From NCBI RefSeq assembly GCF_011745625.1, contig NW_027191498.1, positions 1 through 64,000 of the forward strand: 64,000 nucleotides of DNA, in the 5' to 3' direction. The stretch's first letter is position 1. Every line of letters begins with the position of its first letter. The stretch is from Cladosporium halotolerans. Taxonomy: Eukaryota. The notes beneath the pieces were generated by a model, which saw only the letters and a program-made list of their open reading frames with translations, was not told the origin of the DNA and searched no databases. Shown here in pieces: positions 10,028-44,349 of the stretch. A program made the translations under genes and the position numbers.

Positions 10028-11277
<1,250 letters not shown>

Positions 11278-12439
11278 TGTGGCTTGTTGTGGATGTGTGG
11301 TGGGGTTGCTGGGATGAGTGTGAGCGGGAGAGTGTGCGGCGATGGCAGGAGATGGAGCGCAGCGGCAGCAACGTACAGGAAGACGGAGTGTGTTTGGAAT
11401 GATGATGGTGGAGAGGTGGCAGAGCGGCGGGAGATGTTGAGCTTTTTCTTGGAGGGGCAGCGGTCGGCGGGGCTGCTGGCGAGCTTTGACGTATTCGCGC
11501 GCCAAGTGGTGGCTCTGATTGCAGCCCGCCCAACAAGCTGCTCGTGGCCGGAGTGGGCCGCGCCCTTCTCCAGACGCCTGCCTTCTCCGGACCCCTCGTG
11601 GGGTGCCTCCGGTCTGTTTTCGCGCCCTGTCGTGCTCCGGTTTCTTTTCTTAGACCGGGCAATATGGATATCAGACTGCTCGGCGCTCGCCCGAGGCCCG
11701 CGTGGGTGCTTTTGCGCGGCAGAGAGACGTCGTGGTCGTCAGTCTGGCGCCGCAGCCATCGTGGTTGCAACGGCCCTCAACCACTTGCGCTGGGGCTTCG
11801 CCAGCCGACTCGGACCTTCTGCGGCCTCCGGGGTCGGCTGCGGGCTGACAAACACGCCAGCGCTGGGGCGGATAGTGACAAGCCGTCATCAATAATGGTC
11901 AAAGATAGTCGTTTGGGCGGTGTTCGACAGGCAGGTGACCAAGGAAGTCGGCTGTCACCTTTTGCCACACGCTGGTATTAAGGAGGCAATGCACCATCAT
12001 CTCGTAAAGCTGACCCAAGCACTTGGAGTCGAAAACGCAATCTTTCGTGCCGTTCACCCGCTACAACGTGAGAATCCATCACCTGTTACTCTCGTTCAAG
12101 CGCATCAATTTACCGCAAGCATGACCAAGTCATTTTCAAACCATCCATTATCAAGTCGTTCAGCTATAAAAAGCAAAGCAAGCACACGTGAGCGTCCGCA
12201 GAGCGTCAGCCCATGGAACAACGTCCCATGAACCTGACGCCCTTTCGAAGCTGGAAATGCCGGGTGAAGCGACACTGTCCAACCCGCTCTTCCGGGTTCT
12301 CCCAAAACATCGATCACGCAATAAAGAAAAGTAAAGAAAGTGCCGTGCTGCCCAAGCGCGCTGCCTTGTTGGCCTCACCGCCCGGCCTCGACCGAGCAGG
12401 GTAAACACACGCAGCGCCCTGGCAGACAGCGACACATAA

Positions 12440-12655
12440 ACCATGCTTGTGAGCATTGACAGACGACGCGGTTGACCAACAGCTGCACCCTGGCTAGCAT
12501 GCCAGCGTGACTGTTTCTCGCCAACCGCGCCGTCTGCTCTCCATCACCATGCTTGTGAGGACGGACAGACGACGTGATTGTCTGAAAGCTGCACTCTGAC
12601 TAGCATGTCAAAAGTGACTGTTTTTCTGGCCAATCACGCCGTCTAAGCCCCATCA
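12440..12655. repeat. Two imperfect tandem copies (period 106 bp) of a self-complementary hairpin unit
   Basis: ACCATGCTTGTGAG at 12440 and 12546. Both units carry CAGACGACG..AGCTGCAC..CTAGCATG..GTGACTGTTT..CGCCGTCT..CCATCAC. Confidence 0.9.
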
Positions 12656-12692
12656 CAGGTGTCTGCCCACAAGCAAGACTCTTGACTTGTGC

Positions 12693-14045
12693 TCAGTCAG
12701 TCACCTCGACCTTGATGTTCGGCTGTGCAACGAACTTCGCGACTGACTCTCTGATGCGCCGAATCTGCCGTCTCTCGGCTCTCGTCAAAGCCGACTCCTT
12801 GACAGTGTGCCCAACGACGTTCCTACGGACCACGCCACTCCCTTTGGCCGGAATTTCGTACTGGCAGGAGTGAAGCAGGGTGCAAGTCTCGTCATCGCAT
12901 CTGAATACATCGCACAGGATGTACATGCACTTGCTTTTGCTTTTGCAGTGGTTGCAGGCCGCTTCCCCGTCGCATCCCTGCTTCTTTTGGCTGATGCACT
13001 CCATGCAGGCTGGCTTGCCGTGGTTTCCAGGGCATGCGATGCAGGATGACTGATACTCGTTCGAGGATCCTCCGCTCAGTTGTGGCAGCAGTGCCACATG
13101 GCTTGGAGCTACCACTAGTGCCTGGGACGTCGCTGAGGTCTGCTGCTTTGACATGGCGGGAGCAGCTTGCACGGCGGAAGTCTTCGCCTTTTTGGTGGCG
13201 CCCATGATTTCTGAAGCATCCGGAGCAGCCTTACGCTTCTTTGAGCTCGGAGGCGGAAGCTGGCCGGTCTTGTGCTTGGGTTGGTTGGAGGGGTTGTACA
13301 GCGGGCGAGCCACTGCCGGCACGCCTGGCAGCTTCACGCGAGGTCTGACTGGCTCGGTGTTTGCAGATGTAGCTGACTGCGTGTTAATGCTGAGCGTCTC
13401 GAGCTTAGACATGGGATCTTCATCTTCATCATTGGCCTGTGGCGGGGCTTGCAGAGCTCGAAACCTGTCTTGATTAAAATGTTCAAACCCCACAACAGGG
13501 CCTTCGGTGGCGCTCTGCGGGGCACGAGCCGCCTGCGCCCTGGGCGGAGCAAAAGTAGCACTTCTGATGGCAGGAAAGGTTGGCTGAGCCAGGGGGTTGC
13601 GATGATCGATGGGAGCTCGGGGTGCCGTCGGCGGCGGAGGCTGCTTGTTAGTTCTCAGGACATGATCTGGTCCATAGTCAAGGTTAGACGGCTGCGAGCG
13701 AACTTCATGGATGCGGCCGTTGCCTCGAGTCTAGATGCTCTGGTCAATAGCTGTCCTTCGAAGTAGCTCAAGGAAGTTGTTATGGCGGCTTACCGTGGGC
13801 GCCTGCGCTCTGCGCGGCGCAGGAGCATCGGAGTCGATGTAGCGCGGAGGCTCGTATGAACCTCCACGCTCAGCGGCCCTCTCGCGGAGTCTGTTGATCT
13901 CGTTGATGGCTGCTGCACGCTCGCGATCAGCGGCCAGAGAGAGCTTCCCGACAACAGACACAATCTCTGCTTTCCTCTGCGCGCCGAGGTCCTCCGCGAG
14001 CGCGAGCAGCTTGACTATCAGACCGTCTACCTCGCTTGAAGCCAT
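12693..14045 (-). CDS. Uncharacterised ~429-aa protein: N-terminal helical/coiled-coil region, low-complexity middle with a basic NLS-like KKRK, C-terminal Zn2Cys6-like cluster followed by a CCCH-like finger
   Basis: A 63-nt intron 13793-13731 (GTAAGC..TTGAC..TAG) joins ORF 13731-14045 in frame with ORF 12693-13493. Cys pattern CMEC-x7-C-x5-CNHC-x5-C, then C-x4-C-x4-C-x3-H. Confidence 0.75.
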
Positions 14046-14361
14046 GGCGGTTGGTAGTAGTGCAAGGGGTTGAGAGAGTAGATGTTTGCGTGATGTGTTT
14101 CGTGTGCGGTATTCGGTGCGTGATGAGAGTCGGTGCGGGAAAAGGTGAAGTTGAATTTAGGCAGCTGTGCGGTAGTTGCGTTTGCTCTGGCGTGCGACGT
14201 AAACAAGGAGCGGAATTGTAGCCAGGGAAGGCGCGGCTTTCACTGAACAGAGATTCGAACGCCTTCCCGTGCGGCTGGAGTGATCCGTGACGGGGCGAAA
14301 GCAGTAGGACGCGCTTCTCAATCTCCTCCTTCACTTCCCAATCGTCATTTCAGCCTTTCTC

Positions 14362-14763
14362 TCAACTCGTCATGGTCTGCTGGTGCAGACACATCTTCCA
14401 TTCTCCATCAGCCTCGACCCGCCACACAGAGCAGCACAGTGCCTCGAACTTGACATCGTCGTCTTCGGGGTCAGCCCCTTCGCGGGTTGCTCTGACCAGA
14501 TAGCTGATCACTGCGCCGTCCTTGCCCACCGGCGTAACGTCCATCTTGGACAGCCGGTACGACTTCCATGGGACGAAGGCAGGGGAATGCAAGATGTCAT
14601 GCACAGAAGGTGTAGTATCCCGGGTGAGCTTCATGCCGAGCGGGAACTGCATGACACAGTCCGCAGTCAGGTACGGTACCATGGCGGCACCAGACCGCTT
14701 GAGAGCTTGCCAGGTCTCTTCCTCGAGGTCCTCAACGAGGTGACGGATCTCGCGGGTGGCCAT
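14362..14763 (-). CDS. Small NTF2/SnoaL-like fold protein (DUF4440-like)
   Basis: MATREIRHLVEDLEEETWQAL...YLTADC...AVISY...CSVWR...WKMCLHQQT, a typical DUF4440 pattern. Confidence 0.75.
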   Translation of the reverse strand: MATREIRHLVEDLEEETWQALKRSGAAMVPYLTADCVMQFPLGMKLTRDTTPSVHDILHSPAFVPWKSYRLSKMDVTPVGKDGAVISYLVRATREGADPEDDDVKFEALCCSVWRVEADGEWKMCLHQQTMTS

Positions 14764-38829: not shown

Positions 38830-39827
38830 GGTTGCGGTGTTGTGTGTTATGAGAAAGTTTTGTTGTATTTGTGAGGGTTGAGCTGAGTCGGATGGGGTAT
38901 GAATGGAGAAGAGGAGGAGAGAAGAATGCTGAAGCGAGGGCGAGGCGACTTTTTTGACGCAGCTCCTGGATAAGGTGGCCTTGTGCATGAGGCCGAGTGC
39001 TCACGAACACCTGGCTGCGAACCTGCCCCACCATCGTCACCGCGACACATCCGCCGCCCTGCTGCCCCTCCAAGCGCGCCACGCAGACAATGATTGGAGG
39101 AAGATTCAGGCTGAATGGCGTGCGGCAGCAGTAGCGCACGTGGGACCGAGCGTGTCTTGCATCAGCGCATCCACCCTGCAGAGGATGATTTCTCGGATGC
39201 CCTGCCGCCGCCCGCCACCATCATTGGGCCTGCGATGCTGCCGTATCTCTGCCCATCCGCCGTCCGCCATCCGCCGTCTTGCCACCTGGATGAATTCACG
39301 ACACTCGGCAGATGAGGTGAAACGACGTGTACCTGCACTGGAGCACCAGCTATCGACTAGCGCGTCTGCGGTATGGACGCCCTTTGCAGCTCGCGGTCCA
39401 CGGCTCAGCCGCCAGCAGACGGAGCATCTCCTCGCGTAAATCTATAGACTTTCTCCCAATCCAGAATAACGAAAGCAACAACATGAGGCTCTCCGACAGC
39501 CGATCGCCGCGGCCGCGCGCCTGGACTTTCCCCTGCCCTGCCCAGCCCATCCCACCCGCCAACCCAAAAAACAGCCCTCCCACCAAGTTCACCCCTCCTC
39601 CACATCAGCCTCCTGCCCACCCCCACATGCCGAGGCAACACCCGCCCGCCTGAGCAAATCAGGCGAAACGTCGGGACTGCGCCTCCAGCCTGCCAGCCTG
39701 CCACACGAACCCACGATCCATTTACCCATTGCGATTCCCGGCGCCCACATCGACGAAATCCTCTCTCTCCTTCAGCCGGCCGCAGCCGTCGCCGAGCCAG
39801 AGAGAGCAAAGACGGCAGGCAGCAGAC

Positions 39828-40600
39828 ATGTCGCGCTTCGTGAGCGGCGGCACGGACGAGCAGCCGACGCAGCGCGACGACGCCTGGCTCAAGGCCCAGC
39901 AGGAGCTGGACGCCGCCGCCATCGCGCGCCAGGACGCCGGCAAGCAGGCCGGCGGCAAGAGCTTGTACGAGACGCTGCAGGCGAATAAAGGTGGCTGGCC
40001 GCAATCCTCTCTCCTTCCATACTCATCGTAGTCCTACGCGGTTTGTAAGGTAATTCAAGTTCCGCCGACGAGCTGACCGGGGACGTCGCGCAGGCAGCCG
40101 CTAAGCAGGAGGCGTTCGAGGAGTCGACGCGCCTGACCAACCAGTTTCGCTCGCTGGACGAGGACGAGATCGAGTTCCTGGACTCCGTGCAGGAGGGTGC
40201 GCGCGCGCGGGAAGCGGCGGTGAAGAAAGACACCAAGGAGCACCTCGACGAGTTCCGCAGGCAGCAGGAGGAGGCTGAGAGGGCGGCGAGAGAGCAGGAG
40301 GGTGCGGAAGAGCCGACTCAGGTTGGGGAGAGCTGGGCTGCCGGGCCTAGGAAGAGGAAGAAGGGGAAGGAGAGGGAGGGGATCGGTGGATTGAAGATCC
40401 GGAGGACGGAGAGTGGAGAAAAGAAAGGCGAGCCCGAAGAAACGAAGGCAGAAGCGAAGGCAGATGACAAGACTGTCACGAACACTGCGACCAAGGAAGA
40501 GACCAAGGCAAAACCTGATCTGTCCACATCCCCTCCGCCCGTTACAGCATCTCCTGCCCTGGGCCTAGGATTGGGTGCTTATTCTTCAGACGAAGATTAG
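39828..40600 (+). CDS. FAM192A/Fyv6 (NIP30/PSME3IP1)-family nuclear protein; one intron
   Basis: MSRFVSGG..KSLYETLQANK|AAKQEAFEE..NQFRSLDEDEIEFLD; C-terminal LGAYSSDED. Confidence 0.88.
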
Positions 40601-42741: not shown

Positions 42742-44349
42742 ATGGCTCTGAATGAGCCGAAGGGCGCAGAGAGCGTCGTCAATGGAGCTGCGGACTCTAG
42801 AGTACTCATCATCATGACCGGAGGCACAATCTGCATGCGATCCAGTCCAGAGGGACTTGTCCCAGCCAAAGGATTCCTGGACGCGGGCATGGCACCCAGG
42901 CCTTCCTTCAATGATGGATCTGCGCCTGGAACTTTGAATGCATTTCCTGAACACGACGGACCTTCAGTTTCTCTCAAGAGTCTAAGGACTCCCCGCAGCC
43001 GGTACGGAAAGCATGTGCGGTTCTCGGTGCTCGAGTTCCAGCATCTGCTCGATTCTAGCTCCATCGATTCCAAAGGTTGGACCCAGATTGCCAATACTAT
43101 TCATAAGAACTACACGCTCTTTGACGGATTCGTTGTCCTCCATGGCACGGACAGTCTTGCCTACACCAGCTCTGCGCTGAGTTTCATGCTTAGCAATCTG
43201 GGCAAGCCAGTCATCCTTACTGGATCACAAGCACCCATCTTCCAACTCCAGAACGACGCCACAGATAACCTCCTCGGTTCCCTCATCATAGCCGGCCACT
43301 TCCTCATCCCTGAAGTCGGCCTCTTCTTCAACCACAGACTCTTCCGCGGCAACCGCTGCACAAAAGTCTCCGCCGACCAATTCGCCGCCTTCTCAGCCCC
43401 CAACTTCTCCCCCCTCGCCACAATCACCTCCTCCGACATCCACGTCGCCTGGGACGCCATCTACCGTCCGACCGAAATCAAGCCCTTCAGCATCCAAACC
43501 AGCCTGGAAACCGCGCACGTCGCATGCCTCCGCATCTTCCCTGGCATCAAGCCCGAGATGGTCGACGCAGTCCTCCGCGTCCCGGGCCTCCACGGCCTCA
43601 TCCTCGAGACCTTCGGCGCGGGCAACGCCCCGAGCGGGCCCGACAACACCCTCATCAAGATCTTCAGCGACGCCGTCCAGCGCGGCGTCGTCATCGTCAA
43701 CGTCACGCAGTGCCTGTCCGGCAGCGTCAGCCCGCTCTACGCGCCCGCCATGGTGCTCGGCAAGGCCGGCATCGTGCCGGGCCACGACCTCACGACCGAG
43801 GCCGCCCTCACGAAGCTCTCCTACCTGCTCGCGCTGCCCGACATCTCGACGCCGGAGGTCACGCGCCTGATGTCCGTCTCGCTGCGCGGCGAGCTGACCT
43901 CGCGCTCCGGCGGCACGCAGTTCAGCCACTCAAGCGCGGCGCCCGGCGACGCGCAGGCCGCGCGCCAGGCGCACCTCAGCAAGCTGTCGTACGCTATCGC
44001 TGAGGGCGACGTCGCGCACTTCAAGGAGATTTTGACGTACGAGCCGGACTGGCTGCTCAACGAGGCGGATTACAGCGGGAGCGTACCGCTGCATGTCGCG
44101 GCGGTGGGCCCGAATCTGGAGCTGTTGAGGTTGTTGTTGCAGAAGGGCGCGAGCGTGCACATGCGGAATAAGGCGGGCAGGACACCGCTGTTTCTGGCGG
44201 CCAATGCTGGGCTGGAGGATCGCGTGAGTTTGCTGAGGCAGTCGGGGGCACATTTGCATCCTGAGGAGAATGGGGTGGCGAGAGTGCTGTGTGAGAAGGG
44301 GTCGCCAGAGGCGCAAAGGTGCTGGGAGTTGGCTGGCGTGACGGTGTGA
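42742..44349 (+). CDS. Type I cytosolic L-asparaginase with C-terminal ankyrin repeats (60-kDa lysophospholipase-like)
   Basis: TGGTICM, DSS, HGTDSLAY, TGSQ, ETFGAGN; ankyrin PLHVAA and GRTPLFLA. Confidence 0.94.
   Translation: MALNEPKGAESVVNGAADSRVLIIMTGGTICMRSSPEGLVPAKGFLDAGMAPRPSFNDGSAPGTLNAFPEHDGPSVSLKSLRTPRSRYGKHVRFSVLEFQHLLDSSSIDSKGWTQIANTIHKNYTLFDGFVVLHGTDSLAYTSSALSFMLSNLGKPVILTGSQAPIFQLQNDATDNLLGSLIIAGHFLIPEVGLFFNHRLFRGNRCTKVSADQFAAFSAPNFSPLATITSSDIHVAWDAIYRPTEIKPFSIQTSLETAHVACLRIFPGIKPEMVDAVLRVPGLHGLILETFGAGNAPSGPDNTLIKIFSDAVQRGVVIVNVTQCLSGSVSPLYAPAMVLGKAGIVPGHDLTTEAALTKLSYLLALPDISTPEVTRLMSVSLRGELTSRSGGTQFSHSSAAPGDAQAARQAHLSKLSYAIAEGDVAHFKEILTYEPDWLLNEADYSGSVPLHVAAVGPNLELLRLLLQKGASVHMRNKAGRTPLFLAANAGLEDRVSLLRQSGAHLHPEENGVARVLCEKGSPEAQRCWELAGVTV

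Follow-up and report, generated by a model that had tools for sequence, protein, structure and literature searches.

Do two neighbouring hairpins directly behind the stop codon of a fungal gene form a working part of its messenger RNA (mRNA), or are they the decaying trace of a duplication? The question is raised by the first 64,000 nucleotides of contig NW_027191498.1 from Cladosporium halotolerans (assembly GCF_011745625.1), the stretch of DNA that was analysed here and that we call the window. Two similar units, each able to fold on itself, lie there in tandem at positions 12440-12545 and 12546-12657, just past the minus-strand end of an open reading frame (ORF) for a cysteine-rich protein. 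The structure of this array is real and exceptional for the 64-kb window. Several independent, individually weak signals suggest a minus-strand RNA element, and our preferred reading, to which we give a probability of roughly 40%, is that the units together form a structured, lineage-specific element of the 3' untranslated region (3' UTR) in the minus-strand cysteine-rich gene.

A neutral origin is nearly as likely. According to that explanation, an inverted duplication or a template switch made a palindrome, a tandem copy of it followed, and both copies have been decaying since; the apparent compensation between the arms would then have come from DNA-level switching or arm conversion. Much of the evidence below bears on the choice between these two explanations.

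Architecture and fold strength of the array

A repeat search aligned 12440-12504 with 12546-12610 (65 nt, 82% identity, spacing 106) and, as a second block, 12514-12547 with 12623-12656 (34 nt, 79% identity). The spacing of the second block is 109, and unit 2 is therefore about 109 nt long. By blastn the two units are 79.8% identical over 99 nt (E 9e-19), and their MAFFT alignment contains 21 substitutions (14 transitions and 7 transversions) and 4 gap columns. The array thus has the form of a head-to-tail tandem duplication, with two copies that are about 80% alike and a period of 106-109. The Tandem Repeats Finder program (TRF, minimum score 30) reported four arrays in 11000-14500, the unit pair not among them. 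A preliminary description of this DNA, whose quoted sequence matches the actual one, had spoken of two self-folding units of 106 bp; the self-folding was borne out, and the size had to be corrected for unit 2.

The foldback makes up almost the whole of each unit (some 100 nt out of 106-109; arm ends TGTGA...TCACA), and the G+C content of the units is 50-59%. In unit 1, read on the minus strand, the hairpin core occupies 12448-12547 and closes on an apical loop at 12495-12500, which is AUGCUA on that strand. Its inverted arms pair as had been proposed (12460-12474 with 12522-12536; 15 nt, 93% complementary). In unit 2, which is the more decayed copy and is likewise read on the minus strand, the core occupies 12554-12657 with inverted arms at 12554-12580 and 12631-12657 (27 nt, 74% complementary), and an identical loop lies at 12601-12606, so that the previously reported sharing of the TAGCAT loop by both units is correct. 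In both units, also as reported, the A.C mismatch at 12466/12530 corresponds to G.U pairing on the minus strand. The linker between the hairpins has been duplicated along with them, and ACCATGCT stands before both units.

Both hairpins can in addition be enclosed by a 12-nt clamp with 92% complementarity, formed on the minus strand by an inner half at 12444-12455 and an outer half at 12664-12675, the latter 18 nt past the stop codon. It is this clamp, and not the GGCAGACA/TGTCTGCC pairing put forward in the preliminary description, that appears in the folds predicted for both strands.

Folding of both strands, as had been recommended, places the array beyond chance: the 266-nt stretch has a folding energy of -102.8 kcal/mol (z -5.0) when read on the plus strand and of -125.8 kcal/mol (z -5.9) when read on the minus strand, and in neither case did any of 200 shuffles reach such an energy. 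The whole window was also scanned with 110-nt windows, plus and minus strand, for a total of 12,780 folds, and the energies were regressed on base composition. After this correction the minus strand of unit 1 is the top outlier of all 12,780 windows, at -6.2 standard deviations. Its minimum free energy (MFE) is -59.9 kcal/mol on the minus strand (z -7.83) and -44.3 on the plus strand (z -4.67). For unit 2 the strands are about equal, with an MFE of -42.6 (z -4.32) on the minus strand and -38.4 (z -4.36) on the plus strand.

Paired changes, repeat history and strand bias

If the hairpins are kept as RNA, their stems should show it in the differences between the two copies. The material for such a comparison consists of two paralogous copies and one lineage of relatives that are about 97.5% identical. 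The compensatory substitutions claimed in the preliminary description are real and concern the pairs 12469/12527, 12471/12525 and 12493/12502. Two uncompensated changes in unit 2 had gone unmentioned there: 12478/12515 has become G.T, which pairs on the plus strand only, and 12480/12513 has become A.G, which is broken on both strands.

We fixed a reference set of 27 Watson-Crick pairs on unit 1 alone, a choice that is strand-neutral and blind to unit 2, and then scored these pairs in unit 2. Three of them are double changes, two are G.U on the minus strand only, one is G.U on the plus strand only and one is broken. In the MAFFT alignment, the three pairs that changed on both sides and are still paired correspond to a P of 0.003. 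Of the 27 pairs, the minus strand retains 25 (P 0.015) and the plus strand 24 (P 0.064), with a best-strand P of 0.03. RNAalifold, whose use had been suggested earlier, gave 28 consensus pairs on the minus strand, three of them double-changed, two converted from C-G to U.G and none broken. Among 1,000 neutral simulations the consensus energy of -41.5 was reached in 2%, and at least three double-changed pairs appeared in 4-7%.

Other results of the same comparison weigh against a selected structure. An equal-scoring alternative alignment, in which one gap is moved, leaves only two double changes (P 0.05) and keeps 24 of the 27 pairs on the minus strand (P 0.064) and 22 on the plus strand, with a best-strand P of 0.12. 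The energy of unit 2 (-43.4) compares with -37.3 +/- 5.8 for unit 1 carrying 21 random substitutions (P 0.15), which is within the range that random mutation of unit 1 would give. The stems carry 10 substitutions in the MAFFT alignment, and their rate of 0.185 is close to the 0.204 found outside the stems, as neutral decay would have it, yet on the minus strand 25 of the 27 pairs survive these changes. Finally, two of the three double changes stand 2 nt apart, like a single template-switch tract, so that one DNA template-switch event could have produced both; replication template switching is described as a process that both makes and repairs stems, and does so without selection on the individual mutations (PMC8794818). 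The number of double changes, with a P between 0.003 and 0.05 depending on the alignment, is nevertheless a point against a purely neutral course.

The order of events can be read from an alignment of all four arms, in which the two 5' arms were set beside the two reverse-complemented 3' arms. It contains eight 'side' columns, where the 5' arms agree against the 3' arms, three 'unit' columns, which are the covarying sites, and no 'cross' columns. This pattern indicates that the inverted duplication came first and the tandem duplication later, and the eight side columns indicate that the hairpin was already imperfect when it was duplicated. Judging by the four arms, a segment of about 50 nt would have been copied in inverted orientation to give a hairpin, and the entire hairpin with its linker would then have been duplicated in tandem. 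Such a history also fits a neutral by-product. Less expected on neutral grounds is that the 15-bp core stem is still present in both copies even though the ancestral hairpin was imperfect.

The two explanations differ most clearly in what they predict for the strands, since a minus-strand RNA predicts a strand bias and a DNA-level palindrome predicts none. The 551-nt stretch 12150-12700 has a z of -7.3 on the minus strand versus -5.2 on the plus strand, the composition-corrected z favours the minus strand in three of the four hairpin segments of 12190-12680, and the difference between strands at unit 1 ranks among the lowest 0.1-2% of windows. A palindrome decaying without function does not account for this preference. 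Transcription-linked mutation bias would also give a strand bias, and would itself imply minus-strand transcription. Against the RNA element stands a strand-neutral count of transition mismatches, read manually from the four-arm alignment, which is about 7 minus-favouring versus 4 plus-favouring and not significant; for this reason we regard the strand bias as suggestive, not proven. Counts of wobble pairs on the minus-strand fold favour the minus strand as well and were rejected as a measure, being biased by how the pairs were chosen.

On these alignments and folds, the evidence for selection on pairing is modest. The selected RNA structure proposed in the preliminary description is backed by the compensated pairs, the strand bias, the position and the single-copy status in the window and contigs searched, and is weakened by a unit 2 stability that fits neutral decay and by the ability of template switching to mimic compensation.

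Relatives, copy number and neighbouring genes

We compared the region 11300-14100 with contigs of three genome runs (X4, X7 and X11) and one metatranscriptome (X15), at an identity of at least 85%. Across 2,801 nt, X4 shows just 3 differences and is almost identical. X7 and X11 have 69-70 differences, or about 97.5% identity, and both units are present in each. Among the differences listed, eight lie in or beside the array, and all eight leave the core stems untouched. They comprise 12437 T>A, between the hairpins; 12483 C>G, at the edge of a bulge; 12505 G>A, which turns a C-G pair into U.G on the minus strand; 12506 C>G, by which a mismatch becomes a pair; an insertion of CC behind 12516, within an internal loop; 12581 T>A, at the end of a helix; and, in X11 only, an A inserted after 12609 and a C inserted after 12624, both in unpaired runs.

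The strains also supply points on the other side. There are 70 further run-specific differences (38 in X7 only, 32 in X11 only), about six of which could fall in the array by proportion. Differences common to both relatives number 5 in the 255 nt of the array and 8 in about 1,005 nt of non-coding flank, a higher density in the array; the primary sequence is therefore not conserved, and a divergence that at least equals the flank rate is what a neutral by-product would show. With the 11 shared substitutions of 12150-12700 the minus-strand fold is 5 kcal/mol more stable (-259.5 vs -254.5), and random sets of 11 substitutions gave -244.8 +/- 6.3, with 1 of 197 as low (0.10 for the plus strand). 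We rejected this energy effect as evidence of selection because its null assumes that all changes arose in the relatives; with unknown polarity, neutral drift also gives sign-balanced effects, as seen here.

The array could also be the relic of a foldback transposon, similar to a miniature inverted-repeat transposable element (MITE), that came to lie behind the gene and was duplicated there, or of two adjacent insertions. The location is intergenic, each unit is nearly all foldback between the arm ends given above, and terminal inverted repeats are present in the form of the 15-nt and 27-nt arms (93% and 74% complementary). The copies such a family would leave were looked for in several ways. 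No second copy of the units turned up in the 64-kb window with blastn, with an nhmmer profile (next best E 0.99) or with the covariance-model search recommended in the preliminary description, run with filters off (next best E 0.33). In the genome contig sets of the three relatives, at an identity of at least 85%, the only matches were the 1-2 contigs carrying this locus, none of them partial, and contigs of 6.9-17 kb cross the array unbroken.

A target-site duplication is likewise absent, since ACCATGCT, which precedes both units, does so as part of the repeat and is missing after unit 2. The homology of the linker moreover points to one tandem duplication and not to two insertions. Numerous dispersed copies with target-site duplications, which the preliminary description had named as one finding that would overturn its proposal, were thus encountered neither in the 64 kb nor in the three contig sets. 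Because further copies were missing at this identity in the contigs, the linker is duplicated and no target-site duplication is present, a dispersed family is unlikely, though old copies that have diverged further may exist in the rest of the assembly, and we consider a transposon relic improbable.

Searches for the element elsewhere were carried out in metagenome contigs. A degenerate pattern of the 21-nt apical stem-loop gave no match there, and a search guided by the protein of the neighbouring gene produced 56 pattern matches, of which not one was confirmed; the fungus itself seems absent from this collection, which makes the result uninformative on distribution. That the element could not be traced beyond close relatives in the metagenome contigs searched counts against a functional role. 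An Rfam cmscan of 12000-13000 (E<=10) returned two matches, both below the family's gathering score (17.5 bits where 50 is required, 13.4 where 44 is), in agreement with the earlier remark that the hairpins belong to no recognised family. ARAGORN found no tRNA or tmRNA gene in 11500-13500. A limited search of the Cladosporium literature on MITEs and on small RNAs, Dicer or microRNA-like RNAs (milRNAs) yielded no description of such an element.

The array begins 18 nt past the minus-strand stop codon (12693-12695) of the cysteine-rich ORF at 12693-13493, which is the ORF or last exon of a protein from an uncharacterised fungal family; a possible upstream exon lies at 13731-14045 on the same strand. 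The ORF has one close homologue with 96% identity, and at E<=0.001 a set of 1.84 billion proteins yielded 15 representative clusters of the family, which apart from the close homologue are 30-39% identical to it. Eight cysteines and one histidine are invariant across the 16 aligned sequences (C163, C166, C174, C180, C189, C194, C199, C204 and H208). The family consensus at the C-terminus, SIKxExxD, matches the NIKVEVTD of the ORF, so that the stop at 12693 is genuine. Pfam gave no family for two ORFs of the window or for any of the 14 distant homologues scanned, and the best ESM Atlas feature scores for the protein, 0.77 and 0.75, are under the lead level. The designation 'zinc-finger gene' used earlier therefore lacks a Pfam match, whereas the invariant cysteines and histidine agree with it and make metal binding by the protein plausible on the sequence.

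Within this ORF, X7 and X11 share a three-base replacement, TCT>AAA, at 12780-12782, and X7 is without 6 bases, in frame, at 12930, beside a short TTGCTT repeat at 12931-12946. With 18 shared differences in 801 nt, the ORF exceeds the non-coding flank in their density. In the 5' part of the gene, 13761-13880 folds unusually well on both strands, with ranks 3 and 8 after composition correction.

Downstream on the same strand, the next gene is presumably GAPDH, with its ATG near 11277; it is recognisable by its MVVKV start, within the ORF 11209-11505. The array lies 1.15-1.4 kb upstream of this putative start. Because it stands 18 nt past a stop codon and ahead of the next same-strand gene, it sits where a 3' UTR is expected. 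Its palindromes might instead serve GAPDH at the DNA level, as sites for dimeric transcription factors or as an insulator. In line with this, the gene that follows on the same strand is the putative GAPDH, its upstream region does contain tandem palindromes, and the single RNA contig of metatranscriptome X15, at 11300-11379, lies at the putative GAPDH 5' end and extends to 11379. The array is, however, far from the GAPDH start and only 18 nt from the stop of the other gene, and binding sites need neither 35-bp compensated stems nor a strand-biased G.U pattern. We consider this the least probable of the explanations discussed.

In X15, the one metatranscriptome mapped, no RNA contig covers the array, which counts against a transcribed element and is not evidence of absence; six RNA runs each contained only about 0.2 of the sampled words. 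At 12320-12340, roughly 350 nt beyond the stop codon, stands AATAAAGAAAAGTAAAGAAAG (plus strand), which on the minus strand reads as a run rich in U. This sequence could indicate the region in which the minus-strand transcript has its 3' end, or it could act as a poly(A)-like signal for an RNA from the plus strand.

Two further structures lie between the array and GAPDH. The hairpin at 12331-12440 (minus strand; z -3.62 versus -1.84 on the plus strand) ranks 11 of 12,780 after composition correction, and the hairpin region at 12191-12300 (minus strand; z -4.51 versus -2.65) ranks 2. Neither is matched by the profile (nhmmer) or covariance model built from the units, and neither is homologous to them. 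The hairpin at 12331-12440 is possibly part of the same transcript as the array, and 12190-12680 looks like one hairpin-rich minus-strand region. Elsewhere in the window, the minus-strand stretches 43861-44030 and 39811-39970, with a G+C content of 0.73-0.77, have the lowest raw energies (-60 to -67 kcal/mol per 110 nt); of these stretches only 43901-44010 stays near the top after composition correction.

Possible role and comparison with known systems

We infer transcription of the array, selection on its pairing and every step of the following mechanism. After the inverted and tandem duplications, pairing of the core stems would have been kept at the RNA level by double changes from G-C to A-U and by G.U intermediates, while loops and bulges drifted. 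In the mRNA, both hairpins may be closed by the 12-bp clamp to form a long double-stranded platform immediately behind the stop codon. Such a platform would most likely serve as the place where a double-strand-specific RNase (RNase III or Dicer), or another structure-reading protein, gains access, and this access would set the stability or the 3' end of the cysteine-rich mRNA. It might perhaps also block read-through into the downstream GAPDH promoter.

A more far-reaching idea, which we regard as a long shot, is that the clamped pair and the hairpins of 12191-12440 together make a double-stranded RNA 'buffer' of about 500 nt at the end of the cysteine-rich transcript. Cut by a double-strand-specific RNase, the buffer would end and insulate transcription before the strong GAPDH promoter and shed small RNAs as a by-product, as a hairpin-based fail-safe terminator that evolves by local inverted and tandem duplication.

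If the array is a working part of the mRNA, it offers a clean and young case of a 3'-UTR element born by inverted and then tandem duplication and kept by compensation, in a fungal group with almost nothing known of post-transcriptional control, and it would open a way into a cysteine-rich gene family that is still uncharacterised. If it is neutral, it is a caution that two paralogous hairpins can show 'textbook' compensation, with a nominal P near 0.01, without proof of function.

Fungal milRNA precursors are imperfect, bulged stem-loops of about 100 nt. The units resemble them in being imperfect, bulged stem-loops of that size in a probable transcript, their hairpins are stable on the minus strand (z -7.83 and -4.32 for units 1 and 2), and the tandem pair is like a small cluster. 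Established milRNA precursors are in addition transcribed and yield small RNAs of discrete size from one arm, with the help of Dicer or Argonaute; for the array such a role would be conjectural.

In yeasts, stem-loops cut by RNase III of the Rnt1/Pac1 type lie in mRNAs or downstream of poly(A) sites and serve mRNA control and fail-safe termination. The array is similar in placing long stems after a coding region and ahead of the promoter of the next same-strand gene. It differs in its loop: budding-yeast RNase III reads AGNN tetraloops, and the array has the six-base AUGCUA.

With MITEs and other foldback elements the array shares a short unit that is almost wholly inverted repeat. It is set apart from MITEs by the lack of dispersed copies in the searches above, the missing target-site duplication, the co-duplicated linker and the G+C content of 50-59%.

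The array also resembles hairpins made and mended by replication template switching (Monttinen and Loytynoja 2022, PMC8794818), with a reverse-complement stem and clustered 'compensatory' changes two positions apart. Template switching is strand-neutral, and on its own it leaves the minus-strand bias of the array unexplained. It explains how a hairpin originates and not what it does, and is thus compatible with a 3'-UTR element as well as with a neutral by-product. If the 3'-UTR element is real, it would be a lineage-specific example of a familiar type of element.

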